Source of the DNA: a virus
Lineage: Duplodnaviria; Heunggongvirae; Uroviricota; Caudoviricetes
Strand: one strand, 5' to 3'
DNA length: 64,000 nucleotides
IMG/VR virus record: IMGVR_UViG_2693429637_000011
In this document: in pieces, positions 1,647 to 50,841 of the stretch
Numbering within the stretch: the stretch's first letter is position 1
Layout: each line of letters starts with the position of its first letter
Translations under genes and position numbers: made by a program
The notes under the pieces: generated by a model
What the model was told of the DNA's origin: nothing
Seen by the model: only the letters and a program-made list of their open reading frames with translations
The model's database searches: none

Positions 1647-2285
1647 ATGACCAGTCAACTCATCCCCGTATTCAACGGCACTATCGACAACGAAACAGCC
1701 CTACTCTGCAATGCCCGCGATCTGCATGCTTTTTTAGGCGTGAAAAAAGTGTTTGCGGCATGGATTACAAATCGCATTTCAGAATACGAATTCATTGAAA
1801 ATCAAGACTATATTTTGCTTTCCAATTTGGGAAAGCAAACATCTGGTAGAGGCGGTCACAACCGCAAGGACTACCACCTCACCCTCGACACAGCCAAAGA
1901 GCTTGCGATGGTTGAACGTAACGAAAAAGGCCGCCAGATACGCCGCTACTTCATCGAGTGCGAAAAGAAACTTCGCAACATTCAGCCAGTACAAGCAGAA
2001 CCACAGCCGCAATTCACAGCCGAGGAAATCATCCTCCTTTGCTACATGCAGCTCTGGATGGAAAAAGCCCAGGACCTCAGCAAACACCTGTATCCCATTA
2101 TGAAAGAGCTGAACTCCTCATACACGAACAAGCTGTATGACATTGCGTTTGAGACCATCTACATGGTGACGAAGAACAGAGACGCGCTACTGAGGGAGGT
2201 AACACGTCTCGACATGTCAAGTTCCGTTATCCAGCGGGCCATGCCAATGCTGAAAAGCCTGCGGGCAAGACAATTCGAGTTTTAA
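1647..2285 (+). CDS. Antirepressor-like protein (AntA-type N-domain fused to shared C-terminal module)
   Basis: RBS aaggagg 8 bp upstream of ATG; C-terminal 93 aa nearly identical to ORF 48591..49262 and homologous to C-terminus of 2540..3172. Confidence 0.65.
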   Translation: MTSQLIPVFNGTIDNETALLCNARDLHAFLGVKKVFAAWITNRISEYEFIENQDYILLSNLGKQTSGRGGHNRKDYHLTLDTAKELAMVERNEKGRQIRRYFIECEKKLRNIQPVQAEPQPQFTAEEIILLCYMQLWMEKAQDLSKHLYPIMKELNSSYTNKLYDIAFETIYMVTKNRDALLREVTRLDMSSSVIQRAMPMLKSLRARQFEF

Positions 2286-2539
2286 GGCCAGATTTGACAA
2301 ATCCGCATTAACGGGGATATATTCCGCTCCATGGTGCTGAACACACCTTCGAAAGCGGAAACCGCGCCCGTCAGTCATGCGGATTTTTTATGTCCATTTT
2401 TCAGATATGGTCGGGTAGCGCGTATACCGAAAAACAGCCGCAAGGCTAAGGATGCGGGCCGAACTTTCGACGGTGTTCAAGTACCCGACCGCCCTGCTGA
2501 ACACGGGGTGATCTGAACAAATCGAAAGGACATAAAACT

Positions 2540-3172
2540 ATGAGCACTCAACTTGTATTCCACAATGTTCAATTCCAGACCGTTCAACGAGATGGTCTAC
2601 TGTGGTTGTCTGCCCCCCAAATAGCCAGCGCGTTACAATATGCAGATCAAAGCTCGGTAACACGCATCTATGCCCGTCACGCAGATGAATTCACAAACGG
2701 TATGACAGCCTCGGTCAAATTGACCGATCCTAAAGGGGACAAGCAAGAGACTCGCATCTTCTCATTACGCGGCGCTCACCTAATAGCGATGTTTGCTCGA
2801 ACTCCAATAGCAAAAGAGTTTCGTCGCTGGGTATTGGATATTCTGGACCGTGAAGCTGAAAAAAGCGCTATACCGCCACAACCTCATATTCAGCCTCAAT
2901 TCACAGCAGAAGACATCATCCTGCTCTGCTACGTTCAACTCTGGATGGAAAAAGCACAACAACTCAGTAAACAGCTATACCCCGTCATGAGAGAACTGAA
3001 CTCTGATTACTATGGAAAGCTGTTTGATCTGGCCTACGAAACTCGTCATATAACCAACCGGACTCGCGACACATTGCTCCGCGAAGCAGCAAAACTTGAT
3101 CCCGCCAACTATACGGTGCACAGGGCCAGAAGTATGCTGGCGCAACTAAGAGCAAGACAATTTGAATTCTGA
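2540..3172 (+). CDS. Bro-N domain antirepressor-like protein with the same C-terminal module
   Basis: N-terminal Bro-N-like sequence (LVFHNVQFQTVQRDGLLWLSAPQIASAL...); C-terminal ...QPQFTAEDIILLCYVQLWMEKAQ...RARQFEF homologous to the other two ant paralogs. Confidence 0.65.
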   Translation: MSTQLVFHNVQFQTVQRDGLLWLSAPQIASALQYADQSSVTRIYARHADEFTNGMTASVKLTDPKGDKQETRIFSLRGAHLIAMFARTPIAKEFRRWVLDILDREAEKSAIPPQPHIQPQFTAEDIILLCYVQLWMEKAQQLSKQLYPVMRELNSDYYGKLFDLAYETRHITNRTRDTLLREAAKLDPANYTVHRARSMLAQLRARQFEF

Positions 3173-3219
3173 AACCAAAGGAGCTTCGGCTCCTTTTTTC
3201 ATGCCTGAAGGAAAGGAAA

Positions 3220-3441
3220 ATGGCAGATATCATCGACAATGCCGCTGAAATCGAAGAATTGCAGCGCAATCTCTCCCTGCAAAAATACAAATCCGATAGT
3301 AATGCCCCATCTGCTACTCATTGTTGCGAGTGTGGCGATCCGATAGATGAGCGGCGACGCCTGGCTGTTCGTGGATGCCGAGCTTGCGCCAGTTGCCAGC
3401 AGGATATTGAACTTATCAACAAACAGAGAGGTGTGAAGTGA
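3220..3441 (+). CDS. TraR/DksA-family C4 zinc-finger protein
   Basis: 73 aa, CxxC...CxxC (CCECGDPIDERRRLAVRGCRACASC) typical of phage TraR-like proteins. Confidence 0.65.
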   Translation: MADIIDNAAEIEELQRNLSLQKYKSDSNAPSATHCCECGDPIDERRRLAVRGCRACASCQQDIELINKQRGVK

Positions 3442-3677
3442 ACATCAACACCACGATAACGATCGATACAGCCCTGAACACCGGCCTGGCGCTCCTTGGT
3501 TATTTCTACATCATGTTCTGCAGCGGACGATGGCTGTCACTGTTGTTCATGAAAAAATGGAATAAACGCCGTAAGCAGGAGCAACGCCAGAAGGCAATGG
3601 ATGCATTTTTCGAAGCCTTCGGGATTGACAGCATGGAACCAGGGGATCCAGCTCGCGCAATCAGCAGAGGGGCGTAG
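3438..3677 (+). CDS. Small hypothetical membrane protein
   Basis: GTG start overlapping upstream stop; hydrophobic segment LALLGYFYIMF. Confidence 0.35.
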   Translation: MNINTTITIDTALNTGLALLGYFYIMFCSGRWLSLLFMKKWNKRRKQEQRQKAMDAFFEAFGIDSMEPGDPARAISRGA

Positions 3678-3683
3678 TAATCC

Positions 3684-4010
3684 TTGTATATCGGAGTGAA
3701 GAGAAAAATGACGATCACAAAACAACGTGTAGAAAAAATCATATATCGCCATGAAATGGGACTGAACAGCGATGTCACTGCCGAAGAGGTTTATGACCTG
3801 GCTGTACTGGCGCTGAATTTATCAAATATCGCAAACCTGAAGCGATACGAGCTTGATATGGATGGTTGCGACTCGTGCGGTCAGGATTGTGGCGCGGATA
3901 TGACTGAAGATCCTGATGGTGATTATGTCCTGTTTGATGACGTGGTTAAGTTGTTTGAGCTTGATACATTCGAAAGCCCAGCAAAGGAGGCAACCAGTGA
4001 GCAAGATTGA
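3684..4010 (+). CDS. Hypothetical acidic protein
   Basis: ORF with coding-like composition in operon context; stop overlaps next gene start. Confidence 0.4.
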   Translation: MYIGVKRKMTITKQRVEKIIYRHEMGLNSDVTAEEVYDLAVLALNLSNIANLKRYELDMDGCDSCGQDCGADMTEDPDGDYVLFDDVVKLFELDTFESPAKEATSEQD

Positions 4011-4485
4011 TTATCAAAAGCTTCGTGAAATCGCTGAAAAAACAAAAATTGCTGGTGAAGCACCTGTAATGCCTTTCGATCAGCGAATTAATGCGCTTAA
4101 CGATTTTATGAAGCACTTTTCGCCAGATATCGCGCTGGCATTGTTGGATGAGATCAACGCATTAGAGGAAACGCGTATCAACGATGTTTGCCGTATTGCG
4201 GAACTAACAAAACAACTGGAGTTGGCAAAATCAAAACTCAACGAGCAGCGTGAGTATTACGAGGGCGTTATCTCGGATGGAAGTAAGCGCATAGCAGAGT
4301 TAGAAAGTGATTCTCAGGCACAAAAGTTAGTTGAAGCAATCATTGTTGCGATAGAAAACGAACAGGAACGTCTTTTTGATGAAGATTACCTAATGGATTC
4401 GAAAGAATGCATTGACGTAATTCGTGAAGAAGTAAAGCGATGGAATGATTCCCGCGCCGCTGGCATTCGCATCAAAGGAGAGTGA
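3997..4485 (+). CDS. Ead/Ea22-like protein
   Basis: GTG start after RBS aaggagg; [15 protein letters not shown]... N-terminus resembles lambdoid Ead/Ea22 family; coiled-coil rich. Confidence 0.55.
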
Positions 4486-4486
4486 G

Positions 4487-4810
4487 ATGACCACATCGCA
4501 TTCTGCAATTACCCAGAAAAAAGCCTTCCACATACTCGAACGATTAGAGGCGCTTGCTACGGAGGAGGAGATATCCCCGGAGAAACTGGTTGAGTTCAGC
4601 CGTGTGATATTGCGTCGCAAGAACGATATGGAGCGGCTGACATCTGGCGCTCCATCCTTATCAGTCAGGCGAACACTTTGTTGCAGCTTCTGCAACAAAT
4701 CCCAGTACGCCGTCAAAAAGTTAATTGCTGGGGACGCCGTTTTCATCTGCGACGAGTGTGTGGATGTGTGCAACAGAATTATCCGGGGAGAGAAAGAGGG
4801 ATCAGCATGA
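4487..4810 (+). CDS. ClpX-type zinc-binding-domain-like protein
   Basis: C-terminal [34 protein letters not shown] closely resembles the N-terminal C4 zinc-binding domain of ClpX; RBS aaaggagag upstream. Confidence 0.55.
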
Positions 4811-5337
4811 AATTTTCCAAATTTTCTGAGTTGGTGAATCGTATTTTGTCCAACAACCACAGCCATCGTCGCGATATGGATGTAACGATCGTTGTTCATT
4901 CGCCTGGTCGCATCGGTTCAACACCATCAGTTGAGGTTCAGTCAATTCAGGCGGGTTTTGATTGGGATGCCGGGAAAGTGATGATTTTTCCAGCACAGCC
5001 ACTGACCACGCTAACACCGGAGCAGGTTGCTGATATCACTGATAGTGTGCGCAAAGGTCAGTCTTGGCACGCGTATCAGGAATACAAGAAGCATAAAGAG
5101 CAGTTGGAAAAATTGTCGATGGAGTTGGAAGCCGCTAAACAGCGGGAAAAAGATCTGTTTATGGAAAATGTTCGACTTAAGTCAGGTATAGCCGGTCTGA
5201 TACACCTCGGTATTCGATATGCGGATGTTGAGGTCATGAAAATTGCTGGAGATGCCCAGCTTTCTACTCCATGCACTGACAGCATCATAAACAGCATTGC
5301 AGCAGGCATTTTCACCAAAGAGGGGGCAGCACGATGA
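4807..5337 (+). CDS. Hypothetical protein
   Basis: ATG overlaps upstream stop (ATGA); 176 aa. Confidence 0.45.
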
Positions 5338-5519
5338 GAACACTAGAGGTTCGCGCTGAAGACGTAATCCCTGGTGATGTGCTCATAACATCTAAAGGTC
5401 AACAATGTGCGGTTAAATCTTTTTGGATGGAAAATGACAAAGTGACTCTGTTCGGTACGGATGGTTCCGAAACTGATTATGACTACGACGAATTGCTTGT
5501 TATTGAGAGAGCTGCCTAA
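5334..5519 (+). CDS. Small hypothetical protein
   Basis: ATG overlaps upstream stop; 61 aa. Confidence 0.35.
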   Translation: MRTLEVRAEDVIPGDVLITSKGQQCAVKSFWMENDKVTLFGTDGSETDYDYDELLVIERAA

Positions 5520-6283
5520 TGACCACCTTTACCAAAGAACAGTTAATCTCCCATGCACGCGAAAGCGTTAGTTATCTGGAAAACTTGAAAGGACGTGTTA
5601 GCAAAGAAGGTGCGGACTGCAAAGTTGTTATTGAGATGGTTGCACGAGATCTAAAACTGGCACGGATTGCGCTGGCATCGCTGGAAGCAGATCCAGTTAA
5701 ACGAGTTAACTCAGATCAGATGCGCCGAGTCTGCTTAGAAGCTAATCGCCATTTAGATAAATATGACGCGATGGCGAAAGAGGTAAATAAGTTGCTTGGA
5801 CGCATCGCCCCGCCAGCGCCGGTAGTGCCGGAAGAAGCAACTCCGGAAAACGTAGAAATGCTCTCTGGCTATGTTTCCACGTACAAATTAACTGATAGGG
5901 AGCGCGATATTGCTGCCGAAATATGGAACGCCTGCCGCGCCGCCATGCTTCAGTCCGGAAACTTTCGGGAAAATAAAGATTCGTCAACCAATAATTTTCG
6001 GAAAATCCCGGAAGCGTCAACCAGCTCTCCGGTAACTCCGGATGGTTGGATAAGCTGTAGTGATCGAATGCCAGAAATGGGAGAGCGACAATACTATGTG
6101 TTAGCAGCTGACTTTAAAAACAACTACCCACCAAGCATCCCCAACACTCAGGTCGGCGTATATGGCGACTGGTTTAATGATGGCAATCCCACTTGGGATG
6201 ACGGTGATGGCGAAGACCTGCATCTCAAAGAAGTAACCCACTGGATGCCGCTACCAGAACCGCCGAAGGAGGTACGCCAATGA
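5519..6283 (+). CDS. DUF551-family phage protein
   Basis: C-terminal ...HWMPLPEPPKEVRQ motif shared with second copy at 51852..52436; same MTTFTKEQLISH N-terminus. Confidence 0.55.
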   Translation: MTTFTKEQLISHARESVSYLENLKGRVSKEGADCKVVIEMVARDLKLARIALASLEADPVKRVNSDQMRRVCLEANRHLDKYDAMAKEVNKLLGRIAPPAPVVPEEATPENVEMLSGYVSTYKLTDRERDIAAEIWNACRAAMLQSGNFRENKDSSTNNFRKIPEASTSSPVTPDGWISCSDRMPEMGERQYYVLAADFKNNYPPSIPNTQVGVYGDWFNDGNPTWDDGDGEDLHLKEVTHWMPLPEPPKEVRQ

Positions 6284-6370
6284 CCTAGCCTGAAGCATTT
6301 GCAATTGTAGTGGCTGCCATTTCGATCGCACTGATTGTTTTTGCGATTTTGCCGCTGGGGGTAAAATAGT

Positions 6371-6685: not shown

Positions 6686-9600
6686 TTAATCCACTCCCAC
6701 TTTTTTGTTGTACTCGCGGTTAAACCGATCCACGGCAACCTTCATATCCCGCTCTACCGATTTCACCATCGCCGCCTGCTGCGCCAGACTGAGAGAACTG
6801 TCGGCATAAATGGCATCGCGCTGTTTGCGCAAATCCTTCAGTCTCTTCCGGGTATCCTGCATAAGCCCGTTCATCAACAATTTTCCGTTGTTCTCGTCAA
6901 TGAACGCCGTTCTTTCTGCACCGGTCAGACTCTTCAGCTCTGCGTGATACTGCGCAACCTCTGTCATCCGGTCGTACATCTTCTGCTGGTCTGCATACGG
7001 CATCACCTCACCCGAAATTTTCCCCAGGAAGGGCACCTGCTGTTCCGGTATATCAATACCATTCAGCGATTTCACCGCCGCATCCGTGGTTTTGGAAATG
7101 AAGCGCCCTGTCCCTCCGGAGATATAGTCAATCCAGAATTTCAGCGATTCCGGTGTGATATCCACCGCGCCGGGACGATACTGGCTGCCACCTGAGAACG
7201 CATTCAGCCAGAATGCAAACGCCTTGTACGCTTCTGGCGTTGAACGTCTTCCCAGCTGGCTGTCAGGTTTTGGTGTACCAAACGGCATGTTCTCCTGGTA
7301 AATCTGCGCCCCCATGAAGTTTTCGTTCATGGCAAGATTCGCAAACGGACGCAGAATTGTCGGTGCTGCATTTTTCAGCAATGCCCCCGACAACGTTTCC
7401 GACGTCTCGCTGCCGATCGGGCTGAATGCCCCCAGGATACCGCCGACAACATTACCGGCAGCACGTGAAGCAGTCAGGTCGCCCGCTGCCACACCTTCAG
7501 CTGTATGACCAAGCAGGAAGAACACGTTGTACCCGTAAGGCAGAGGAATACTCCAGTACTCACCGGCCTTGCCCCCGAACATCGATTTCATGATGACGAG
7601 GTTACGCTCTTTCACATGAGACGGTACTTTGTCGTACCAGTTAACCCCGTCATCATCCTCACCCGCCACACTGCGGTTAAGCGAGCCAAGCAGATAACCC
7701 GCTCCCACAGCTGCAAGCACGATTTTCTGCGGTACATTGAGATTCTTCCAGCGAAGGCGCTCCAGTAACGGTCCGTCGCCATTAAGATGTCCGAGCGTTC
7801 TCACCAGGTTTGCGGTCCCCTGAATGCTGGCGTTGGCAAACATGTACAGCGAGTTCATCAGCATCCCCTGCTCACCACGACGGTTAAAGTTCACCGTCAT
7901 GTTTTTGGCAAGAGACGCCGCCTGCTGGCGTGACAAACCGGCATCACGGGCGTGTTTATAGGCAGAAAGACGCAGAGCGTTTTCAACCGCGCCGTTGGCA
8001 TCCTCGACCAGGTTCAGGAACGAATGCCATGCACCGATACTCTGGCCTTTCCATCCGCCCTTCGCCAGCGACACAAGGCGATCCATTTCCTTCTGCTGGC
8101 CCTCAAGGTCACCCATGTTAAACCAGCCGGTTTTACCTCCGTCCTCAACAAACTCTTTCCACACTTTCTGCCACTGTGCGCCTTTGCCCGTGAGGGTTTT
8201 ACCCCGCAGACTTGCGTATACGGCTGACATGGCGGAACGGCTGTCTTTCACCACAGCCAGCGCGGATAAGTTATCCAGCTCTTTCAGTTTACCGTCGCTC
8301 CTTCCCTGCTCAGCCTTCAGGTTCATCACCGCAGTCTGCACGTCACGGATGAAGTTACTGACCAGAAATTCCGGGTTATACGACGTGTTCACCGTTGCCA
8401 GGAAGCGGTTAACTTTCCCCAGCGTACGGATTACGGCGTTACTGGTTTCCGGCCCCATGTTCTTCATCGCACGCATCAGGCGCGGATCATGAAGTTTAAT
8501 GTAGTAAGTTTTGCCGTCCTTTTTGGTGGTGAAGTAGCGATCCGCCATCATTGCCATCGGCACAGGGCGCTCGACAACTTCGCGAATGGTTTCACCAGTT
8601 TCCTGGTCCTTGCGCTCTGCAATCACACGCATTGTATCCGGTCTGTCATCAGTGAATACCTGCCAGTAATCCTTGTCGGGATTATCCTGTACCAGTTTCA
8701 GGAAGGCGTTACCCACTTCATTTTTGCGATTGCGGATCAGCGATTCACTCAAATCCTGTATCGCCTGAGTGGAAGGAGACTGTGCGCGGGATGCACGCCC
8801 CATGGCCTGCTTACTTTCACGCCCGCCGATGGTGAATCCCTTGCCTGTACGTGGCTGTGACACCACACCGTCAACATCCTGCCCTTTCAGGGGGACGTAG
8901 TAACGGTAGGCTTTCTGCCAGGCATCCACCACGCCGCTCTCTTCCAGTCCTGCCTCACGGATAATCTCACGGCGACGGGCCAGCATATCGTCAATAATCC
9001 CTGCCAGACGGTCATACTGTGCCTGTTTGCCGCTGTTACGCACACGCTGCATGATTTCCGCCGCTTCCGCGTTGGTCATCCCCGAACCGCCGTCCGGCAT
9101 TTTCGGGTTGATTTTCGCAATATGCACGTTACGTTCCGGCGCGTGACGGGCGTAGAGGTACTCATCCAGATCGGCCTGCGCAATTTTGTAGTCCGCCAGC
9201 AATTTGGCCAGCGGCTGAACGTAGCGCTCCTTCATTACGTTCAGGTCGTTTTCCGCCTTCCCGTGGAAGAGTTCTTCAGCCATATAGGCGTTATTGCTGT
9301 CATCTATTTTTCCGCCAGTTTTACGGATATTCTCCTGCACCGCCTTCAGCACCTGGAATTTATCCTGCATCTGGCGAACAAAACGGGATGCAATTGTCTC
9401 TTCCGGCGTCAGACTGCTGGTGCGGGAGTAATACGGCCCCTTGCGAATATCTTCAGGATAGAGTATTTTATCAACAGAGCCGCGATAAGAATGTTCCCCT
9501 TTGGGCAATTGGAGCCCTCTGTGCAGAAGGTTATCGCGGCTTAATTTTTCTCTCCGGTACAACGTTAAACCGGTCATTTCCATACTCTTCAGTTTTTTCC

Positions 9601-12600
9601 CGTTTTCCGTACCGTAAACAGATGCCACCTTGTTGATTTCCAGGCGCGACCGGACAGCCTTCATGTGTACCGCTGACACCACCGGATCACCATTTTTATC
9701 CACGGCATCAAGCAGCATCACAACCGCGTTTCTTTCTGTCGCGGAACGGTAAATTGCATCCGGATCGTGCATCAGTTCCGGTAGTCTCTCGATAACATCC
9801 ATCGGCACCACATGTTTCACACCATTGGTGGCCTTACGCACAGTGTCGCGGGAGATAACCAGCGGCAAATCTGGTGCGCCAAGGTGACGCAATACCGGCG
9901 GCGTACGCCCGATGTTTACCGTTAAATCCGTTGAGCGCAGAGACTTCATCATTCTGGCAAGGTCATCACGATAACGCTCGCCCTCACCTTCCGGCACTTT
10001 GAACGGATCAGGCTTACCGCTACGGGAGTACTGAGACGATGCGTCCGCGCCATCCTCACGCGGCGTGTAACCTTCCCGCACACGCTGGCCTAACGTGCGA
10101 ATAGTTTCGCGAACAAGTCTGATATCGTTCAGTTCCGTCGGCTTCAGTAACCCCGTACGACGCAGTACCCCTTTGACCAGGGCAACAACACGCTCCCATG
10201 CCGCCACGAATTTAATCGGCTGCTTCTCTGCCATATGCGCCAGAAATTCACCCGCCTGCACTTCCGGTGATTCCTTACCATAAGACGCATCAACCTTACG
10301 CCAGGCTTCACGGATGGTGGCGTTATCACTGTCACGGGTTTTCAGCACGGTCTTAATAATCGTCTGATATTCCGCTGGCGTGACTACATGCTCCATTGCA
10401 TGGTGAATAATCTCGTGACGTAACTTCTCGCGAACGGTCCGCCCGTCAGGGATGTTATCCGCCACCAGGACAATTTCACGTTTATCCGGACGATAGAACG
10501 CGTGCACCTTGCCGTAACCGTCGAATGATTCACCCGCCAGTGCTTCAGCCTCTTTCTGTGACTTCACCACGCGGACCTTCAGGTCACTGTCCTTAATGCC
10601 ACTAATCACGCCACGGGCAACAGCTTCAACCTGCGGGACCGGACTGCCTTTGGCTTCCGCACTGCGGTTAACATCCGAAATCAGATTGCCTTCAGGTGTG
10701 CGGGTCACGCCCTTACGGGAATAAAACGCAACTCCCTTGTCCGTCTCACGGGTTTTCAGTGTTCGGAACAAGTGATCGAATGCCTCACGAATACCGCCAT
10801 CCAGTTCTGCATTCGTCGGATAAGCGTAGGTGTCCGGCTGTCCATGGTCATCCGCCTTACGGATATTGACCAGATAATCATTCTCCACGCCAGCCATACG
10901 CGCTTTATCCTGAACATAACGCTCAAAGGCTCGCGCCGCCATTTCAACATCCGTTGACCAGTACGGTTTTGAACGAACGCCATCCAGGCGTTCAGAACGA
11001 CGCAACATGTCACTGCTGTTAATGGCTTTCATCACGCCTTTAAACGCGTCGTAAACCTCCTGACGTACCGGATATTCCGCATCAACATACCTGCCGTCTT
11101 TAAATACGCGCCCGGCACGCTGTGCTTCCGTCATATAGTCGCCACCTGACGTGATCTTCCCGTCAGTGGAAACATCATAACGACCAAAATAATTATCCAG
11201 TGAATGGAACCATTCGTGGGCCAGCGCCCCCGGTCCGTTACCTTTTGTCAGGTTGATTGCCACCTCACCCGGCTCATAGTGTGCCGCCGCCTTACCCTTA
11301 CCACGGGCACCAAAAGCAAGCCCAAGACGACCGTTCAGAGAAAGCGCTTTTGTCGGCACGTTCAGCACGTCAGCCAGGTCATGCAGCGAGTCATAAGCCC
11401 GGTTCAAATCAGCCTGACGACGCGGACTTTCCACATAATTACCAAACTGCACACCACGAAAACCAAACGCATCACTGAACTGCTCCGGCGAAACATCCCC
11501 CTTGCGGCGTTCTGGTCCGGTACGATCGCGGTTGGTGGCGTTACGCTGCTCCTCACGCGAGACTTCACGCAGCGCCTTCACCTGATTAACCAGCTCATCA
11601 CGATGTGTGCGCACATAATCATGTGCATCACGGGCAGACTCAAAACCGCCCTTCAGTTTCTGCCTGTTTTTGCCATAACCGATAAAAATGTCGCCACTGG
11701 CCTTATGCCGGTACACGTCAAAGGTTATTCTGTCATCAGCAGAGGTTGCTGGCGTTTCCCTTTCTCTGGAGCCTTGTTCATCGAAATATGCTTTCGCCTT
11801 TTTCAGTAACTCATCCCGGCTTTCCGAGAAAAAGAGGTCGCGCCCCTTGCTATCACGAAGCGAATACATCATTTGCGGCGGATCGTAACGTTTTCCCCCG
11901 ACAAACGAATAAACACCGGACCTGACACGATAGCCGGATGCTTTATCAATCTGCAATGCAGAAAGCGTACGGAGCAGTTTCCAGGTATCCGACATGCTCC
12001 GTAACCCCGGCTTACTGTCCATCATATCAGCCAGTTTCGCTGCCGGAATTTTCCCCTCCAGCATACCGGCAGTAGCTTCGCGACCGCTTTTAACAATGCT
12101 GATCCATTTCTGCATGTTACGGCTTGTTCTGGTGGGAATTTCACTGCGATACAACGCCATCATTGCCAGCGTGTCACTATCCACACCTTCTTTTTCCAGA
12201 CGGGCATAATCCGGCTTTGGAAACAGTTTGCTCAGTGGTTGTGTCGCGTACTCCCCATCCTCCAGCGTTTTACCCATAGCTTCAGCAAGCTGCGCATAAC
12301 GGTGTTTTGCCGCGCCCTTAATCTCCTCGCCAAAGTCTTCAATTTTCGCACCACGCGCCTGCTGGTGAGTGCTCGGTTTATCTACCGGCACCGGCACCTC
12401 AGTATCCGGAACATCGGTTATGGTCTGGCGATTATCCCCGGTCTGTCTGCGTGCTTCTGCCTGCTGTGCCAGTTCCGGAAGGGAGTCACGAACCATACGA
12501 GGGAGTGATTCAGGCTGTGGCATATCAACCCCACGCTGACTTTCAGGTGCAGGAAGACCTTCACGCACTGGTGCTGTGGCGTTCTGCTCATCCGGTGACG

Positions 12601-15037
12601 GCAGACCACGACGAACTGTTTCGCCCTCCAGTATTTCCCCCTGGCGACCAGCGGCATTTTCCGGTGCCTGCGCACGTCCTTTCTGGAAACTCTGGCCCTT
12701 CACCTCACCGGTTGTGGTAAAACGACCACCACGTCCGGCCTGATTTTCATCCGGCGTACGCGCTACTTCTCCTGGTAACGGATATCCCTGTCCGGGATGA
12801 ATATCGCCGGGAGCGGGAAGGCGTGGACGCTCAGTTAACTCCTGTGCTGTCGGACCGGCATCACCTTCAGCCATCTGGGAACGCACCAGTTCTTCCGCCG
12901 TCGGCGCGTTGCCACGAGCAAGACGGGCCTGCACTTCTGTATCATCCCCCGTAAAACCACGGAATCGCGGGTCACGCATGAACGCGGGCTGTTCCATCGG
13001 ATCAGCATCAGTAATACGCTCTCCGTCAGCCAGAGTGTTAATGGTCTCCGTTGCCACATCTTCAGAGAACGCAGGATTATCCATTTCAACGGCATACTGA
13101 TTCTCGCCTTTCTTCACTACGGACGGTTTCAGGCCGGTGGCGCTGGCATTGCGGAAAACGTCGCTCCCCAGAGCACTTTTTTCATCCGTGAAATAACGGT
13201 TGTCCGGACGCACCTTTTCAATGCGTTCTGCTGGTCTGGACGCACCACTCTCGTTAATTTCAATACGAACTTCATCCGGATCGCGGAACCGCACCGTCGG
13301 GTAAATACTCCCGTCGCCATCATCCGCATTTTCCGGCTGTGGCTGTGCCTCCGGTCTGGCCTCCCGCTGAGGGCGAAGCACATCACGTATTGCCTGTAAC
13401 TGCTGCTCTTCAGTATCAGTACGCCCTTCCTTCTGGCTGAGTTTTCGGTATTCCTCAAGCAGTTCAGGGCGCGGCTTCGCCTTCAGCTCATCCATCACCG
13501 CCTGTCGCTTCGCCTGTTCATCCAGTTCATTCAACAGCTGGCTGGCGGCTTCCCGGCGATGAACGGCAGACGTGTCTCCCTCATGTGCCATATCCGCATC
13601 AGCATACTGTTCCAGAAGCTGCTCGCGATTCATCCCCTGCATAGATTCACGATGCTGTGCCACCGGATCAACCGGTTCGGGTTGCGGAGCCGATTCGTCC
13701 TGAGGAACGCTTTCAGCCTCACGCATGGCTGCTTCATCTGCCGCCTGACGTTTTCCACGATATCCGGCAGCCGCACCGAATGGTGCCCCCATTGCAGCAC
13801 CAAGGGCTGCACCTTCGATCGTTGCGTCAGCCACGCCCTCCCACGGTGACACATCCATTCCGGCGGTCTCACGCAATGCCGTGTTTTCCTGATAGCGTGA
13901 ATAGCCACCCTGCGCCGCATTAATCGTCCCCTGTTCCGTGGCATTTCTGACAATGCCGCTTTTAACGGTCTTCGCCGTGCCCCGCATCGCCAGATTAAGC
14001 AACTGAGCATCGCCCAGTTTTGCCGCCATGGCATTCACAGCCAGCAATTCAGGATCGGTTGCCAGCTGCGCACGCACCTCATCGGCAACACGCTCTTTTG
14101 CCAGGTCCATTTTCTGGCGGTCAGTAAGCTGCGCGTGCTGCGGATCTGCATCAATTGACAAAAAGGTCTGCTGAAATTTCGGTGACTTCGCCAGCTCAGA
14201 ATAATCCGCGTTAAGAACAGCATCTGCCGCTGCCATTGCACTCCGCCCTTGCGCACTGACAGTGGAATGGGTGATCAGGCCTGCCTGGAAAAAATCCGGC
14301 ATTTTTTTATCGACAGCTTCGGCTGCCAGTGCTGTGGCTCTTTCCGGCTGCATCCCTGCCGCGATGTATTTTTTCTCCAGCCCGGCGGTCAGCACTTTTC
14401 GCAGAGTGACATCACCCAGCTTTTTAGTCACACCGCCTGCAACCATATCCGGTACAAGCGCACCAATCAGGTTAACCCCTTTCGCTACCCAGACCGCTGA
14501 ATCATCATATCCTTCAGTCATCGGTGTATTCAGCGCCCGCTGCGCCCCCGGCGACATCTTGCCAGTCAGCCATTCATCCGAGGCTTTAGCGCCGCCACTG
14601 ACGGCCTTGCCTGTGACCTTCAGACCTTTACCGACAGTATCAGTAACCGCATTTTTTCCATCAGGCAGAGTGTCGATGACCTCATCCGCCCCCTTGCTGC
14701 CACCGACAAAAATATCCTGAACAGTTGCGACTCCCGGCAGCCCCATACGGCTGAACTCATTTAAAATACGTACCCCTGTTTTTACCGGGCTCTGAATCAT
14801 CGCATCACCGAGTCCACGGGCCATTTCCCCTGTCCCCCGGACGGACTGGGCGACACCTTTCCCCATAGTTGGCAATACATCGCCCAGGCTGAACGACGTG
14901 CTGTTGTCCTTCCAGCGATTGGGATCGGAGAAAAACACATCATAGCTGTCAGTCTCTCCCGGCTGCTGAATGTTCAGGCTGTTGCGGCTCTGGTTGCCAA
15001 ATTGCGCTTCAGGGCGCTGTTCATCGGAATAAGCCAT
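6686..15037 (-). CDS. Giant (2783 aa) multidomain virion-associated protein, candidate polyvalent/ejection protein with two zincin-like HExxH motifs
   Basis: Single uninterrupted 8.35-kb ORF at the distal end of the morphogenesis operon; HEWFH (~11201-11216) followed by ...EMAARAFE; second HEIIH (~10395-10420). Confidence 0.8.
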   Translation of the reverse strand: MAYSDEQRPEAQFGNQSRNSLNIQQPGETDSYDVFFSDPNRWKDNSTSFSLGDVLPTMGKGVAQSVRGTGEMARGLGDAMIQSPVKTGVRILNEFSRMGLPGVATVQDIFVGGSKGADEVIDTLPDGKNAVTDTVGKGLKVTGKAVSGGAKASDEWLTGKMSPGAQRALNTPMTEGYDDSAVWVAKGVNLIGALVPDMVAGGVTKKLGDVTLRKVLTAGLEKKYIAAGMQPERATALAAEAVDKKMPDFFQAGLITHSTVSAQGRSAMAAADAVLNADYSELAKSPKFQQTFLSIDADPQHAQLTDRQKMDLAKERVADEVRAQLATDPELLAVNAMAAKLGDAQLLNLAMRGTAKTVKSGIVRNATEQGTINAAQGGYSRYQENTALRETAGMDVSPWEGVADATIEGAALGAAMGAPFGAAAGYRGKRQAADEAAMREAESVPQDESAPQPEPVDPVAQHRESMQGMNREQLLEQYADADMAHEGDTSAVHRREAASQLLNELDEQAKRQAVMDELKAKPRPELLEEYRKLSQKEGRTDTEEQQLQAIRDVLRPQREARPEAQPQPENADDGDGSIYPTVRFRDPDEVRIEINESGASRPAERIEKVRPDNRYFTDEKSALGSDVFRNASATGLKPSVVKKGENQYAVEMDNPAFSEDVATETINTLADGERITDADPMEQPAFMRDPRFRGFTGDDTEVQARLARGNAPTAEELVRSQMAEGDAGPTAQELTERPRLPAPGDIHPGQGYPLPGEVARTPDENQAGRGGRFTTTGEVKGQSFQKGRAQAPENAAGRQGEILEGETVRRGLPSPDEQNATAPVREGLPAPESQRGVDMPQPESLPRMVRDSLPELAQQAEARRQTGDNRQTITDVPDTEVPVPVDKPSTHQQARGAKIEDFGEEIKGAAKHRYAQLAEAMGKTLEDGEYATQPLSKLFPKPDYARLEKEGVDSDTLAMMALYRSEIPTRTSRNMQKWISIVKSGREATAGMLEGKIPAAKLADMMDSKPGLRSMSDTWKLLRTLSALQIDKASGYRVRSGVYSFVGGKRYDPPQMMYSLRDSKGRDLFFSESRDELLKKAKAYFDEQGSRERETPATSADDRITFDVYRHKASGDIFIGYGKNRQKLKGGFESARDAHDYVRTHRDELVNQVKALREVSREEQRNATNRDRTGPERRKGDVSPEQFSDAFGFRGVQFGNYVESPRRQADLNRAYDSLHDLADVLNVPTKALSLNGRLGLAFGARGKGKAAAHYEPGEVAINLTKGNGPGALAHEWFHSLDNYFGRYDVSTDGKITSGGDYMTEAQRAGRVFKDGRYVDAEYPVRQEVYDAFKGVMKAINSSDMLRRSERLDGVRSKPYWSTDVEMAARAFERYVQDKARMAGVENDYLVNIRKADDHGQPDTYAYPTNAELDGGIREAFDHLFRTLKTRETDKGVAFYSRKGVTRTPEGNLISDVNRSAEAKGSPVPQVEAVARGVISGIKDSDLKVRVVKSQKEAEALAGESFDGYGKVHAFYRPDKREIVLVADNIPDGRTVREKLRHEIIHHAMEHVVTPAEYQTIIKTVLKTRDSDNATIREAWRKVDASYGKESPEVQAGEFLAHMAEKQPIKFVAAWERVVALVKGVLRRTGLLKPTELNDIRLVRETIRTLGQRVREGYTPREDGADASSQYSRSGKPDPFKVPEGEGERYRDDLARMMKSLRSTDLTVNIGRTPPVLRHLGAPDLPLVISRDTVRKATNGVKHVVPMDVIERLPELMHDPDAIYRSATERNAVVMLLDAVDKNGDPVVSAVHMKAVRSRLEINKVASVYGTENGKKLKSMEMTGLTLYRREKLSRDNLLHRGLQLPKGEHSYRGSVDKILYPEDIRKGPYYSRTSSLTPEETIASRFVRQMQDKFQVLKAVQENIRKTGGKIDDSNNAYMAEELFHGKAENDLNVMKERYVQPLAKLLADYKIAQADLDEYLYARHAPERNVHIAKINPKMPDGGSGMTNAEAAEIMQRVRNSGKQAQYDRLAGIIDDMLARRREIIREAGLEESGVVDAWQKAYRYYVPLKGQDVDGVVSQPRTGKGFTIGGRESKQAMGRASRAQSPSTQAIQDLSESLIRNRKNEVGNAFLKLVQDNPDKDYWQVFTDDRPDTMRVIAERKDQETGETIREVVERPVPMAMMADRYFTTKKDGKTYYIKLHDPRLMRAMKNMGPETSNAVIRTLGKVNRFLATVNTSYNPEFLVSNFIRDVQTAVMNLKAEQGRSDGKLKELDNLSALAVVKDSRSAMSAVYASLRGKTLTGKGAQWQKVWKEFVEDGGKTGWFNMGDLEGQQKEMDRLVSLAKGGWKGQSIGAWHSFLNLVEDANGAVENALRLSAYKHARDAGLSRQQAASLAKNMTVNFNRRGEQGMLMNSLYMFANASIQGTANLVRTLGHLNGDGPLLERLRWKNLNVPQKIVLAAVGAGYLLGSLNRSVAGEDDDGVNWYDKVPSHVKERNLVIMKSMFGGKAGEYWSIPLPYGYNVFFLLGHTAEGVAAGDLTASRAAGNVVGGILGAFSPIGSETSETLSGALLKNAAPTILRPFANLAMNENFMGAQIYQENMPFGTPKPDSQLGRRSTPEAYKAFAFWLNAFSGGSQYRPGAVDITPESLKFWIDYISGGTGRFISKTTDAAVKSLNGIDIPEQQVPFLGKISGEVMPYADQQKMYDRMTEVAQYHAELKSLTGAERTAFIDENNGKLLMNGLMQDTRKRLKDLRKQRDAIYADSSLSLAQQAAMVKSVERDMKVAVDRFNREYNKKVGVD

Positions 15038-39224: not shown

Positions 39225-41135
39225 TTATGCGGCTGCTCCAGCTTTGTTTGCTTTAACTTCCACCGTATCAATAAGTACAGGGTAGGTTTCTGCACTACCT
39301 GTAATATCCGTAATGACAAACCTGTTGAGTCCATTAGCAGTATTGGCCCATTTCACCAGGTCAAACGCCTGTCCATCCACACCATCGAGCACCGGAGTAA
39401 CATTAATGCTGTTACTGCCCTTAAATTTAAATGCAAGCGTATGCCAGTCATGGTCGAATGCGCCAAACGTGCCAAGTTCTTTTTGTTGATTAACTGTATG
39501 ATGGTATGCAACATTAATACTGGCTTTATCTGTCTGGACAAAGAAAGAACTCAGATGGCCTTCACCACCCTCACCCGGCCATTCCGCTATTCGCCAGTAC
39601 AAACCAAAGGCATACTTGTTTCTGGTTGTCTCAAGATTGACGTTTTCGGGGATTTTAAACCGGACAGCAATTTCTCCGCCTTTTTCCAGTAAAAGTTTTG
39701 CCTTGTCTGCAGCAATATCACAGTACATTGACCAGGATTTCGCGCTGTTATTTTTCTCAATTCGCAGAGCTTTATTGCCGCTGTCATCAACCAGTGTGCG
39801 CCTGCCATACACACCGTCCCAGCCATAGGGTTTCAGCTGATTGTCTGTAGCTTTTTTGGCATCGTAAAAAATTACAGACTCTGAGGTGGTAACCGGTCTG
39901 TCTGGAACAACCACCCCGGCAGTACCATTAACAAACGCAGAAGACTTACCCGCGCAGCTCAGAATCGCAGTTGCCAGACGGTCGGAAATAATCCCACGGC
40001 GAGCCCATGAACTGAAATGGCTCGCCCTGTCCTGTGACGTCCAGGTGGCTGAGCTGTCACGCCATTTCGAACCGTAATAACCGATACCCGGAATGTCCGG
40101 GTCTTCTTCCGGTTTGTTCGTCGGCACATTCACCCCGTTCTCATCGGTCATGAACGGTACGAAATGGATATTCTTTTCCGTTTTATTTTTATAGCTGCCG
40201 TACACCGTCTGGTACGTGGATTCGTTCTTCTGCTTCCAGAAATACGTCGTGTCCCCGCATATCCAGGGAACACCGCCAGCAGAGCCACCGACGCACTGGC
40301 CTGCCATATCCGCCAGGTCTGCACGGAATTTATCAACCAGCGCACCAAACTGTGCGGCATGATTTGCCGGCGTACCGCCAAAATCAAATTCCCCCTGCAT
40401 CCACACCACGGCAAACAGCACATTTTTCGGGTTCTTCTCCAGTGCCGCTTTTGTTCGACCGATAAGGTCCTTATACAGCGGCTTGTCCACACCCCAGCGG
40501 GTTGAATTCTCCGAGGCGCCACTCGCGTCACTGTATGTGCCATCAGCTCCGGTGGTGAACGCTGAACCACCACGACAGCACGGAACCAGCAGAATGCCCG
40601 CATTCGCCGGTATAAACGGCAGCAGTTTTTTGGCGATATGCAGCCCCTGCCCCACGGTTCCGTACTGCCCCTTTGACAGGTCCGCTTTCGGATGGTTAAG
40701 ACGGCTCATGTCCTGCACATCATGCAGACAATGGTCCGCCGGAATGATGTCGTTATATTTGCATGCTGCACCGCCCGGTGTCACCGTACTGCGACGCGCT
40801 AACTGTTTAATACGTGGATCAGGGCTGTCGAATGTATCCGGTAATGGCAGTCCCTCACCGTATGACATACCATTGGACTGACCAGCAAGCGCGATCACAT
40901 AGTAATATTCTGGCGCAACAGAAGGCGCTGAGGTCGTCGGACGGTTGCCTGGCTCCTCTGGTGATGAGATGCTCCCCTCACTCACAACTGGCTGGATGAA
41001 CTCCGCACCATAACCAGCTGTCGAAATCAGCGCACTACCATAAGGCTGCCACCCTTCCTTCAGTTTTTGAGTTATTCGTTTCGCAAGGTCTGACGGCGAC
41101 GCCGCCCTGACAACATCATAGTGTTTAAATGCCAT
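39225..41135 (-). CDS. nanS-p: Sialate O-acetylesterase, prophage NanS-p-like (copy 1)
   Basis: 636 aa; GQSN catalytic motif of the SASA/SGNH esterase family; conserved N-terminal MAFKHYDVVRAASPSDLAK...KEGWQP domain. Confidence 0.7.
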   Translation of the reverse strand: MAFKHYDVVRAASPSDLAKRITQKLKEGWQPYGSALISTAGYGAEFIQPVVSEGSISSPEEPGNRPTTSAPSVAPEYYYVIALAGQSNGMSYGEGLPLPDTFDSPDPRIKQLARRSTVTPGGAACKYNDIIPADHCLHDVQDMSRLNHPKADLSKGQYGTVGQGLHIAKKLLPFIPANAGILLVPCCRGGSAFTTGADGTYSDASGASENSTRWGVDKPLYKDLIGRTKAALEKNPKNVLFAVVWMQGEFDFGGTPANHAAQFGALVDKFRADLADMAGQCVGGSAGGVPWICGDTTYFWKQKNESTYQTVYGSYKNKTEKNIHFVPFMTDENGVNVPTNKPEEDPDIPGIGYYGSKWRDSSATWTSQDRASHFSSWARRGIISDRLATAILSCAGKSSAFVNGTAGVVVPDRPVTTSESVIFYDAKKATDNQLKPYGWDGVYGRRTLVDDSGNKALRIEKNNSAKSWSMYCDIAADKAKLLLEKGGEIAVRFKIPENVNLETTRNKYAFGLYWRIAEWPGEGGEGHLSSFFVQTDKASINVAYHHTVNQQKELGTFGAFDHDWHTLAFKFKGSNSINVTPVLDGVDGQAFDLVKWANTANGLNRFVITDITGSAETYPVLIDTVEVKANKAGAAA

Positions 41136-41557
41136 GAATCCTCCCGGCCGGGATAATATTGTGAGTAAAATAAGGAGCGGGCTGAAGTCCGGAAGTTACA
41201 GGACAATGGCAGAAGGGAGACTACAGCCCGCAATTCGAAAAAGGTCGCGCAGTTGCGCAGAGTGATTACTATGGGGTATTATTCGCCAGCTGAAATATTA
41301 CTTCACGTTTCATTGTTCATTCCTTGCCGCCCGCGTCTCCCAGCGCGGGCTTTTTTGTCCATAAGAAAGCCCCTCCGGAGAGGGGCTGGAGAGTGGCGCT
41401 ATGTGCCATTGCATGGTGCCGGGTGCCTCCCGGTGAGTTCAGCCCGGTGCCACTAAACCCGCGTCATTCTCGTTTTGATAATCAGAGATTATACCGTCAC
41501 CAGTCGCCCCTCCGCTCAGGGGGATTCACCATGCAGTTTTTTCTAACAAATTCTCAT
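41050..41557. repeat. Repeat A copy 1 (nanS-p 5' end plus ~400-bp upstream element)
   Basis: Near-identical to 45250..45742 and, in part, 46000..46300; contains hairpin cccgcg-N8-cgcggg plus T-run and a perfect TATAAT on the minus strand. Confidence 0.6.
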
Positions 41558-42596
41558 CAGCGCGGGTTTGATTACCGTATCCCTTCATTGGTCGGTTATT
41601 CATGTCCGTCAGCAACTCCCGAAGGCGTGCATTCAGCGCCCTGAGCGTGTGGAAGGTTTCATTACGGATGCGGGCAAGAAGCCATCGCTCGACGATGAGG
41701 ACGCCGTTTTCTGCTTTTGGTTTATCTTTAGGTTTGCGCGGGCGGGCCGGGATAATAACCGTGCCATAGTGCTCAGCCAGCGCCTGATAACTGTCGTTGA
41801 TGACAGGCTCATAGCGATCGGCTTTTTTCACTGCGCTTCTGAGGTTATCGGGGATGAGCAGCTTCGGTACGCCGCCCAGGAAGGTCAGGCAACGGCTGTG
41901 GGCATTTAACCATGACATCATGTCCTGACCTTCGCACGCTTCAACATAGGTATAGTTGGACGCCCCCATTACAGCCACGAAGATTGCCACGCGGCGTATC
42001 TCTCCGGTGTCCGGATTAATAACAGGGACCGTAGGACCACAGAAGTCGATAAAGAGCTTTTCGCCAGCACGATGCTCCTGTCGCATGGAGAGGCGTCGCG
42101 TTTTTTTCCACTTCCGGTAGCAACGGCAGAAGTGTGAGTATCCCATCGCTTTGTCACCCGCCTGTGCCTTGTATTCCATCCACAACAGTTGGCGCGTCAC
42201 GCCAGGTTTTCTCATTTCCGTATCGAAGTACAGCATGTCAGGCATAACAAGCTCTGACGCAGAGGTGTCTTTGGGCGGGAAAATGAGTTTCTCCAGCGTG
42301 TCATGGGATATATCCGCAGGTAATGGCCATGACAGAGAAGAGGCTTTGAAGCGGGCAAGAACCTCAAAAACGGTTGAGGCGCTGATGTGTAACGTCAGTC
42401 CGATACAACGGTTAGTCAGCTTCTTATCGAACTTGAGCTGAAGGATCTTAAAACAAGTTTCCATAGTGCTCCTGGATTTTCTCTTTTTGGACATTGACGT
42501 CTCCACTGGTTTAAACACGGCAATGGAGACTGTGGTGAAAAGAGTTAATTCCCGGAGTGACTGGCGAATTCCAATCAATGATCGGAAGTATGCCAA
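41526..42596 (-). CDS. IstA-like DDE transposase, probably truncated
   Basis: HTH N-terminus and FIDFCGPTV...VAIFVAV...YTYVE core; last codons read into repeat A. Confidence 0.5.
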   Translation of the reverse strand: MAYFRSLIGIRQSLRELTLFTTVSIAVFKPVETSMSKKRKSRSTMETCFKILQLKFDKKLTNRCIGLTLHISASTVFEVLARFKASSLSWPLPADISHDTLEKLIFPPKDTSASELVMPDMLYFDTEMRKPGVTRQLLWMEYKAQAGDKAMGYSHFCRCYRKWKKTRRLSMRQEHRAGEKLFIDFCGPTVPVINPDTGEIRRVAIFVAVMGASNYTYVEACEGQDMMSWLNAHSRCLTFLGGVPKLLIPDNLRSAVKKADRYEPVINDSYQALAEHYGTVIIPARPRKPKDKPKAENGVLIVERWLLARIRNETFHTLRALNARLRELLTDMNNRPMKGYGNQTRADENLLEKTAW

Positions 42597-42720
42597 ATCG
42601 TGATCGATTGTGATGCCAAACTGTGATCGGAGATGGATGCCAAATCATGATCGATTCGAATGCCAAACTGCGATCGATTCAGATGCCATTTTGCAATCAG
42701 CGCCAGAACAGCAGCTGACA
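41526..42720 (-). mobile_element. IS21-family-like element remnant (IstA-like transposase, no IstB)
   Basis: DDE transposase-like ORF; left end carries multiple atgccaaa(c/t)(c/t)gtgatcg terminal repeats (42540-42700); 3' end abuts repeat A. Confidence 0.5.
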
Positions 42721-42800
42721 GGCCGTATTTGATTTTTGCGCTCATGGATATTTATCAGGATGCTACCAATGAAAGATACTGGAAAGCCAACTGCAAAAAG

Positions 42801-43115
42801 CTAACAACCCGTAATCGAGTTATCAGAACTGTTAATTTTTATGGTATACCGCGCCTCTGAACAGGGGCGCGTTTCTGGCAACAGCTCGTCCCCTTCACAT
42901 AACCCGGCAGCAACATCCAGGAAGACCTGTCTGATGCTCCTTCTGGCTGCTGCCTCATAAAACTCCAGCGCGGCACCTTCAACACGGTCCAGCGAGATGT
43001 CCAGGTCAAAAATTTCACCGTCAAAGCGTTTTTTGTCCCGTAACGCTAAAGTTACCGTAACTTTATTCTCAAAATTGCGGATCCCTTTCACAATCAGTTC
43101 ATAGTTTTGAGTCAT
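42801..43115 (-). CDS. DUF1327-family protein (YdfO/YbcV-like)
   Basis: MTQNYELIVKGIRNFENKVTVTLALRDKKRFDGEIFDLD... resembles E. coli cryptic-prophage DUF1327 proteins. Confidence 0.55.
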   Translation of the reverse strand: MTQNYELIVKGIRNFENKVTVTLALRDKKRFDGEIFDLDISLDRVEGAALEFYEAAARRSIRQVFLDVAAGLCEGDELLPETRPCSEARYTIKINSSDNSITGC

Positions 43116-43119
43116 TGAA

Positions 43120-43335
43120 TTACTCTCCCCGTGCAGCCTTACGACGGTCCTCTCTGATTTTGAAATACAGGTTAGTCAGATATGTCAGCAGCCCAAACAG
43201 CAGACTCCCCAGCACGCCTATTGCCGCCCACTGAGACGGGGAAACCCTGTCCAGCAACTGCAGGAACCAGTAGCCCGTTCCCACCGCTGACGTGGTGTAT
43301 GACACACCTGTTGTGATTTTTTCCATCTGGTACAT
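43120..43335 (-). CDS. Pinholin, second (orphan) copy
   Basis: 71 aa, 1 aa different from holin at 38341..38556; no adjacent endolysin or spanin. Confidence 0.75.
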
Positions 43336-43485
43336 ACCCCGTCTCCCGTTATCCGGAAGCTGACAACAATAAAAAAAGCCACCAGTTAAGTACTGATGGC
43401 TCTGATAACTCATGCAGGCATCTCAGACGACCCACTGACACTACCGGTGAGTTTAACGATACCTTCCATTTGGCTGGCTCACTTT

Positions 43486-45742: not shown

Positions 45743-45837
45743 GAAATTTTTTTAACAAATGCCCAGTCTGACAGGCAACTGTCAACTTACTGAATTGTGA
45801 GCAACATAGCATTTAACGGGGAACCTGTTTTCTGCAG

Positions 45838-45866: not shown

Positions 45867-45873
45867 GGAAGGA

Positions 45874-50832: not shown

Positions 50833-50841
50833 TACCCATCA

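Follow-up and report, generated by a model that had tools for sequence, protein, structure and literature searches.

The window analysed here, i.e., the whole stretch of 64,000 nucleotides of the viral record IMGVR_UViG_2693429637_000011 (IMG/VR; Caudoviricetes), is almost wholly one lambdoid prophage of ~62 kb that resembles phage 933W and other Shiga toxin (Stx) phages and is integrated in ynfG, in agreement with an earlier sequence-only reading that had termed the gene studied here phage-encoded. This gene at 4487-4810 (ZBD gene in the following) codes for a small protein consisting of a family-specific N-terminal domain (N-domain) and, at the C-terminus, a ClpX-type zinc-binding domain (ZBD). 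Gene and product are organized as follows:

4474-4480, + strand: Shine-Dalgarno-like AAAGGAG, read from the sequence, 6 bases 5' of the ATG
4487-4810, + strand: coding sequence of the ClpX C4-type zinc finger protein (phrog_6797), 107 aa plus stop codon, complete
4487-4654, + strand: N-terminal family-specific domain, residues 1-56 (AlphaFold2, alignments, no Pfam match)
4655-4669, + strand: linker, about residues 57-61 (low model confidence, indels in alignments)
4670-4792, + strand: ClpX-type ZBD, residues 62-102 (Pfam PF06689, PDB matches, Foldseek, conservation)
4682-4684, 4691-4693, 4748-4750 and 4757-4759, + strand: codons of the predicted zinc ligands C66, C69, C88 and C91
4793-4810, + strand: polar C-terminal tail KEGSA (differing among family members) and stop codon

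The open reading frame (ORF) extends from an ATG (4487-4489) to a TGA (4808-4810), and the AAAGGAG preceding it shares its bases with the 3' end of the Ead/Ea22-like gene upstream (stop codon at 4483-4485). An alternative in-frame ATG at 4445, which would add 14 residues, falls within this upstream gene, and the RefSeq start in identical copies (WP_000213528.1) corresponds to 4487. The domain call is already known (PF06689; RefSeq name "ClpX C4-type zinc finger protein"), while older records carry the name "carboxylate--amine ligase", for which the sequence offers no support. A PHROG search assigned the full-length protein to phrog_6797 (E=3e-58), a family listed as of unknown function.

The zf-C4_ClpX profile of Pfam (PF06689) matches residues 65-100 over profile positions 2-38 of 39 with 57.4 bits (E=1.3e-15; gathering cut-off 27 bits), and a phmmer search of the entire PDB retrieved ClpX entries only, headed by the E. 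coli ZBD structures 2DS5 and 1OVX (E=1e-14), with residues 62-102 aligning gap-free to ClpX 10-50. Cysteines C66, C69, C88 and C91 pair with C15, C18, C37 and C40 of ClpX in identical spacing (CxxC-x18-CxxC) and are invariant in all 42 distinct family sequences. In a single-chain AlphaFold2 model based on 23 family sequences, the ZBD (predicted local distance difference test, pLDDT, 81-88) displays the ClpX pattern of β-hairpins and a C-terminal helix and superimposes on 2DS5, 2DS6 and 2DS8 (Foldseek) with a root-mean-square deviation (rmsd) of 0.4-0.6 Å over 38 columns (68-71 % identity). Judged from sequence and predicted structure, the assignment of the C-terminal 41 residues to a bona fide ClpX-type ZBD may be regarded as secure. 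The 107-aa protein lacks the AAA+ module and is not a ClpX; the NCBIfam ClpX equivalogs TIGR00382 and NF003745 match over profile positions 4-48 alone and score 41.9 and 39.7 bits compared to cut-offs of 359 and 371, respectively. The sequence-only reading is thus borne out in its coordinates (the ORF lies exactly at 4487-4810, and the peptide quoted represents residues 66-99) and in the resemblance of the C-terminal ~40 aa to the ClpX C4 domain (PF06689, 57 bits; PDB, E=1e-14; rmsd 0.5 Å), and the alignment to the ClpX N-terminus which it proposed as a check revealed the same cysteine spacing, not the incompatible one that would have spoken against it.

At the DNA level, the match to clpX is limited to 57 bp with 75 % identity (E=2). 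Across the ZBD codons, the proportion of synonymous differences (pS) from E. coli clpX amounts to 0.8-1.0, i.e., saturation, at a nonsynonymous proportion (pN) of 0.21-0.25; the likeness to ClpX thus dates far back and has been preserved by selection, and a recent capture of host clpX was rejected on account of the saturated synonymous sites and the short DNA match. The family comprises two subtypes, A (MTTSHSAIT..., including the copy in the window) and B (MQHIDREKAQ...). Pooled pN/pS values, which are rough since the pairs are not independent, are 0.34 for the N-domain and 0.62 for the ZBD in subtype A, and 0.39 and 0.40, respectively, in subtype B, showing both domains to be under purifying selection. 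Truncated and frameshifted copies do occur in databases (P0123-P0126), as would be expected if the gene were a captured 5' part of clpX that is in decay or has no function. However, intact ORFs are found in four temperate phage lineages (lambdoid, phage-plasmid, P1-like D6 and P88-like P2) and the gene in 229 of 5426 complete E. coli genomes (about 4 %; 105 plasmid and 136 chromosomal copies), the zinc ligands are invariant, pN/pS is below 1 in both domains and the ribosome binding site is good, so that this explanation is effectively refuted by the conservation data and highly improbable.

The 41 positions of the ZBD were compared one by one across the 42 distinct family sequences (ClpX numbering). 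Besides the cysteine ligands, F17, G31, I36, V41 and C44 are invariant, and S16, K20, Q22, V25, I29, V34, E39, N45 and I48 (the latter kept in 39 sequences) equal ClpX in at least 90 %. Variable are positions 11-12, 19, 23-24, 26, 32-33 and 35 as well as one helix face (42, 43, 46, 47, 50), with L12, G19, R26 and D46 of ClpX being systematically replaced. As to the docking residues, L13 is hydrophobic throughout (L/I/V/F in 42 of 42), position 23 is H or Y in 38 sequences, A30 is kept in 35, and position 47 is I or V in 38. In ClpX, each of the exchanges L12S, L13A/D and H23A prevents the MqsA degron from being recognised, and H23 is named among the residues important for binding of the SspB tail (PMC8808172); F16 and I46 (Houry numbering; F17 and I47 here) belong to a hydrophobic pocket for trigger factor, λ O, SspB and RssB (PMC7804408). 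The docking groove of the phage protein thus appears largely preserved, though not identical, and its range of ligands may be shifted.

The N-domain is predicted by AlphaFold2 to form a hairpin of two helices (residues 10-26 and 31-52; pLDDT 75-83) with heptad-like spacing of hydrophobic residues. K12, R19, E27, R43 and L51 are invariant in the alignments of both subtypes and a distant member. The linker that follows is of low confidence in the model (residues 53-56; pLDDT <50 at residues 57-60), differs in sequence and length between the subtypes and is the site of indels. Pfam searches with the N-terminal region gave nothing up to E≤10, and a phmmer search with residues 1-61 against 1.84 billion cluster representatives yielded nine proteins, eight of which are members of the own family or truncated copies thereof; the N-domain was never seen there without the ZBD. 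The ninth match, a eukaryote-like protein with six BAG domains (E=6e-5), raised the possibility of a BAG-like N-terminus, which was rejected, as profile-profile comparison (hhalign) with the BAG domain (PF02179) gave a probability of 31 % and the Pfam BAG profile no match at E≤10. Since the full scan finds only the own family, the hairpin represents a private domain always travelling with the ZBD; the "unrelated ~60-aa N-terminal region" of the sequence-only reading is accordingly one that lacks a Pfam match and is family-restricted among the 1.84 billion representatives.

ClpXP determines how stable σS, SOS proteins, antitoxins (Phd, MqsA), replication initiators (λ O) and Mu transposase are, most of them via the N-domain of ClpX. 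Taking the features of the ZBD together, the phage protein probably interferes with the substrate choice of ClpXP. Tentatively favoured is a function as a dimeric ZBD decoy that would withhold adaptors or substrates dependent on the N-domain of ClpX from the protease. By analogy to ClpX, the phage ZBD would bind one zinc ion through C66, C69, C88 and C91, dimerise via a conserved hydrophobic face (equivalents of I36, V41, C44 and I48) and, as a dimer, present a ClpX-like groove (equivalents of F17, L13, H/Y23, A30 and I47), the counterpart of which in ClpX docks client tails or degrons (XB tail of SspB, RssB, UmuD/UmuD', λ O, MuA, MqsA degron). A free cytoplasmic dimer would then act as decoy and selectively stabilise N-domain-dependent clients, sparing substrates that engage the ClpX pore directly. 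With respect to the hairpins, one may speculate that those of a dimer pack as a four-helix bundle or higher oligomer, thereby providing avidity, or that they recognise one particular protein of the phage or the host, thereby lending the decoy specificity. Equally speculative is the role as an accessory conflict gene of temperate phages, which could consist in shielding a phage or plasmid protein from ClpXP, in blocking ClpXP-dependent antitoxin turnover, or in the exclusion of superinfecting phages that rely on the N-domain of ClpX.

The decoy is the most economical reading because the ClpX ZBD is an established dimer to which adaptors and some of the substrates dock, and because it competes in trans when isolated. 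Isolated ClpX ZBD was reportedly used in trans in vitro already by Wojtyra et al. in 2003. At 5-20 µM, it inhibited the RssB-mediated degradation of σS by 0.6 µM ClpXP; it also dimerises and cross-links to the C-domain of RssB (Micevski et al. 2020, PMC7226468). The free ZBD dimer of these experiments represents a direct experimental model for the decoy idea (PMC7226468), albeit a construct of host sequence, whereas the phage gene is natural and selected and its product has an extra domain and an altered pocket residue. The selection that keeps ClpX-like residues and the retention of most docking residues are consistent with a decoy. The competition for ClpX substrates or adaptors, or dimerisation with ClpX N-domains, that the sequence-only reading envisaged as a possibility would likewise be consistent with the data, while its description of a ClpX ZBD look-alike fused to an unrelated region holds.

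Several points weigh against a decoy. L12 is replaced by Thr in 34 of the 42 family sequences and positions 19, 26 and 46 also differ systematically; as the ClpX variant L12S loses the MqsA degron, ligand specificity may differ from that of ClpX. In vitro, free ZBD competes weakly (~10- to 30-fold excess), so that a decoy would have to be strongly expressed or gain extra avidity. The ZBD of subtype A outpaces the N-domain in protein evolution (pN/pS 0.62 vs 0.34), contrary to what one would expect if it strictly mimicked a host surface that is itself invariant, and the strongly conserved N-domain is neither needed nor explained by the decoy model. Finally, full-text literature searches found no paper on this ZBD family or on any stand-alone phage ZBD.

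The constraint on the N-domain can be accommodated if the ZBD is a borrowed dimerisation module, i.e., a compact and stable zinc-dependent scaffold for a hairpin acting as effector on a target unrelated to ClpXP. Such a function, which is considered rather unlikely, would agree with the more constrained N-domain of subtype A and its strict association with the ZBD, with the lacking conservation of the pocket residue L12, and with the many small phage and bacterial proteins that bear PF06689 alone or together with unrelated regions. However, K20, Q22, H/Y23, A30, E39 and N45, which are dispensable for fold and dimer, stay ClpX-like despite saturation, and the ZBD of subtype B, found in P88-like phages, shares up to 80 % identity with that of E. 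coli ClpX. The retained polar surface and groove residues therefore appear to favour the decoy, or a heterodimer with ClpX, over a plain dimerisation module.

In case of such a heterodimer, the phage ZBD would mimic a subunit, pairing with an N-domain of ClpX instead of the sister subunit, and tether the hairpin to the hexamer, where it could recruit particular cargo for proteolysis in the manner of a virus-encoded adaptor, or occlude or re-programme the unfoldase. This possibility, regarded as a minor one, is in line with the hydrophobic positions equal to ClpX that are invariant or nearly so (I36, V41, C44, I48, F17) and with the ZBD being a constitutive dimerisation domain (PMC7226468; also reference 25 of PMC7804408). 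Moreover, the layout of a conserved binding domain, a flexible linker and a ClpX-attachment element resembles that of SspB-type adaptors, and the conserved N-domain would gain a role. On the other hand, ZBD dimers of ClpX are reportedly very stable and formed within the hexamer at high local concentration, making an exchange with free protein doubtful.

Compared with ClpX's own ZBD, the phage domain has the same fold, cysteine spacing, core and most groove residues (68-71 % identity, 80 % in the P88 subtype), but is located C-terminally instead of N-terminally, is not followed by an AAA+ module and is preceded by an unrelated hairpin. Small phage proteins altering host proteolysis are the Lon inhibitors Gp4.5 (T7) and PinA (T4) as well as RexB of λ, which affects ClpP-dependent degradation; inhibition of host proteases by phages has precedent as an anti-toxin-antitoxin strategy (PMC10286901). 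These proteins are proposed to stabilise antitoxins or phage proteins; they inhibit the enzyme, whereas receptor-domain mimicry is proposed here, and they are compared by description. Gp4.5, PinA and RexB are not known to copy a protease domain. Closer in outcome are the anti-adaptors IraD, IraM and IraP, which stabilise one ClpXP client via the adaptor RssB and leave the protease uninhibited (PMC6546054, PMC7226468), IraD and the ClpX ZBD being proposed to share a docking site on RssB (PMC7226468). However, the anti-adaptors are host proteins that act specifically on RssB and whose folds are unrelated. Phages also encode other stand-alone PF06689 proteins (phrog_12435, 5259, 672 and 20296; also the 65-aa "Clp protease" of Pseudomonas phage PP9W2), which are likewise small and consist mostly of a ClpX-type ZBD, but have no N-terminal hairpin, share ~38 % ZBD identity and are equally uncharacterised. 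Small phage ZBD proteins thus recur as a theme across unrelated families.

A mobile stand-alone docking domain of ClpX would be a selective modulator of N-domain-dependent proteolysis, including on the phage-plasmid of E. coli O104:H4 described below. If the decoy or the hijacking of ClpX applied, receptor mimicry would join the phage strategies against host proteases and could explain the way in which some prophages and phage-plasmids modulate stress responses of the host or counteract toxin-antitoxin defences; it would also offer a compact tool to block only the adaptor-dependent degradation by ClpXP. A case of natural receptor-domain mimicry in the form of a viral adaptor inserting into ClpX hexamers and steering ClpXP towards new targets, or of a specific anti-adaptor blocking antitoxin turnover and thus disarming abortive-infection or addiction systems, is deemed distinctly unlikely; if true, each of the two would represent the first description of a natural "receptor-domain decoy" for an AAA+ protease of bacteria. 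If neither decoy nor hijacking applied, the gene would remain an unexceptional accessory gene of mosaic character with a domain annotation that is correct as it stands.

Named homologues of the ZBD protein are from Escherichia and Salmonella. Subtype A with 100 % DNA identity to the window is present on phage-plasmids of ~109 kb, e.g., p09EL50 of E. coli O104:H4, which holds the same cassette of an Ead/Ea22-like gene, the ZBD gene and a gene for a 176-aa protein; the copy of the P1-like phage D6 has 93.5 % DNA identity to the gene in the window, and some P2-like prophages also carry subtype A. Subtype B resides in P88-like prophages of the P2 family, where it follows gene A (replication) and a ParM/StbB pair. 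When one genome of each species was scanned with family-specific peptide patterns, no match was obtained, probably reflecting the limit of narrow patterns and of the representative genomes chosen and not absence. The outer edge of the family is marked by a distant relative with 43 % identity (5923-6291 of IMGVR_UViG_2706794630_000007, locus L090), which is encoded in P2-like context on a 62-kb contig, is divergent in its N-terminal region and has a one-residue insertion in the ZBD (GPDGVYIC). Family members P0005, P0007, P0018 and P0023 (loci L042-L044) begin with MKSEGLTPAQLAERNAEL, the N-terminus of neighbouring Ead/Ea22-like proteins, which continues in the same frame into the ZBD protein at its residue ~9; this places a junction of mosaic recombination among the first codons of the gene.

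The direct neighbours of the ZBD gene in the window are:

3916-4485, + strand: Ead/Ea22-like protein, upstream neighbour (Pfam PF13935)
4807-5337, + strand: 176-aa downstream neighbour (phrog_6026/368, function unknown), the start of which overlaps the stop of the ZBD gene

The TGA of the ZBD gene (4808-4810) and the ATG of the downstream gene (4807-4809) form an ATGA junction. This 4-base overlap with the 176-aa gene is shared by the window and p09EL50, but not by D6; the 176-aa gene is absent beside the copies of D6 and P88, and the overlapping downstream gene in P88 is unrelated to it. Clustering of flanking ORFs from ~87 loci identified the ubiquitous, mosaic Ead/Ea22-like family as the sole recurrent neighbour. 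A conserved partner gene or operon was therefore rejected, since the downstream gene changes with context. Likewise rejected was membership in the ParM/StbB partition module: of 79 P88-like loci whose ParM is at least 99 % identical, only 12 carry the ZBD gene, and the lambdoid and phage-plasmid copies are located elsewhere. Lacking a fixed partner and being optional, the ZBD gene behaves like an autonomous accessory cassette moving between temperate phage lineages.

In the P88-like phages, the ZBD gene occupies a highly variable cargo hotspot, flanked by gene A/ParM/StbB on one side and the portal gene on the other (~400-3000 bp downstream of ParM/StbB; loci L093-L171). Elsewhere, the same slot contains AbiLi/AbiLii, IetA or RmrA-like genes (PADLOC) plus many unknown genes; the ZBD cassette thus behaves as one that lodges in regions collecting conflict-related cargo. 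The alternation of such genes with the ZBD gene (12 of 79 loci) could point to superinfection exclusion, in that the protein, expressed by the lysogen, would block ClpX N-domain-dependent steps of incoming phages, e.g., the remodelling of the Mu transpososome. Mu requires the N-domain of ClpX. Superinfection exclusion is a claim on the role and may share the mechanism of the decoy. However, a search of PADLOC-DB v2 yielded no match at E≤0.01 for the ZBD protein or the seven neighbouring ORFs, by which a known defence system was rejected, and the gene has the same orientation as early or antirepressor genes wherever it occurs, instead of forming an autonomous divergent cassette. This orientation suggests expression during the lytic phase, and superinfection exclusion is considered improbable.

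As to its ends (1107-1650, and the far end beyond 63627), homology of the window to the E. coli chromosome (ynfF and the first 84 bp of ynfG) stops at 1202. The same ynfG::prophage junction occurs in 82 complete E. coli genomes, as compared to only 5 chromosomal copies of the ZBD variant of the window; the accessory block is therefore variable within the prophage lineage. Two near-identical genomes are annotated with cI/cII, nin region, Q, a nanS-p-type esterase, lysis genes and terminase, and also with an N4-gp56-type capsid protein, tail fibres and a 2783-aa protein. On the basis of this 933W-like annotation, an integrated phage-plasmid of the D6/p09EL50 type was ruled out, only the small cassette being common to both.

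The ZBD gene is part of a mosaic + strand block (~1650-6300) between the prophage end and the 2783-aa gene, which comprises two antirepressor genes, a TraR/DksA-type gene, a DUF4752 gene, the Ead/Ea22-like gene, the ZBD gene, two unknown genes and a DUF551 gene. Related Shigella and Stx phages have 31-47 % of this block in common, but a search of the phage collection found no match to the ZBD gene itself in them. A scan for promoters and terminators revealed sites to be no more frequent than in shuffled sequence, with ~2540-6300 on the + strand being uninterrupted by a strong terminator-like site. The tandem antirepressor-type genes (1647-2285 and 2540-3172, + strand) differ in their N-termini (AntA vs Bro-N), end in a near-identical C-terminal half (P22_AR_C) and are separated by a strong promoter-like site at 2294-2323 (TTGACA-18-TATATT); strain NCCP15648 carries one of the two. 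The DUF4752 gene, listed at 3438-3754 (+ strand; ORF of the window 3438-3677, 79 aa), adjoins the TraR/DksA-type gene; the annotation of 23CRST047, a near-identical genome, gives it as frameshifted. On the - strand, 6686-15037 represents a single ORF for the 2783-aa protein, annotated as LPD38 or LPD5 domain protein in the near-identical genomes; it has the tail genes on one side and the accessory block on the other, the arrangement also seen in Stx phages of the 933W type.

The early region of the prophage contains a toxin-antitoxin cluster (49607-51386) composed of a relE/parE-family toxin gene (49607-49922) with a gene for a helix-turn-helix protein (49970-50287), a doc-family toxin gene (50338-50823) with a small upstream ORF (50842-51021) that is possibly phd-like, and hok (51231-51386). 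Antitoxins of the Phd type are substrates of ClpXP (cited in PMC10286901). The presence of doc in the prophage that carries the ZBD gene is a coincidence worth testing, not evidence for a link.

The region from the gene for antiterminator Q (46644-47078, - strand) to the lysis genes, where Stx phages carry stx, shows no stx-sized ORF, and ARAGORN detected no tRNA gene in it. Within 39225-47078, ~5.5 kb are absent from strain 23CRST047; this segment includes a second nanS-p-like SASA esterase paralogue (43486-45339, - strand) in addition to the usual one (39225-41135, - strand), as well as an IS21-like istA fragment (41526-42596, - strand). A repeated segment is also present, in that the + strand ORFs at 41324 and 46067 share their first ~77 residues.

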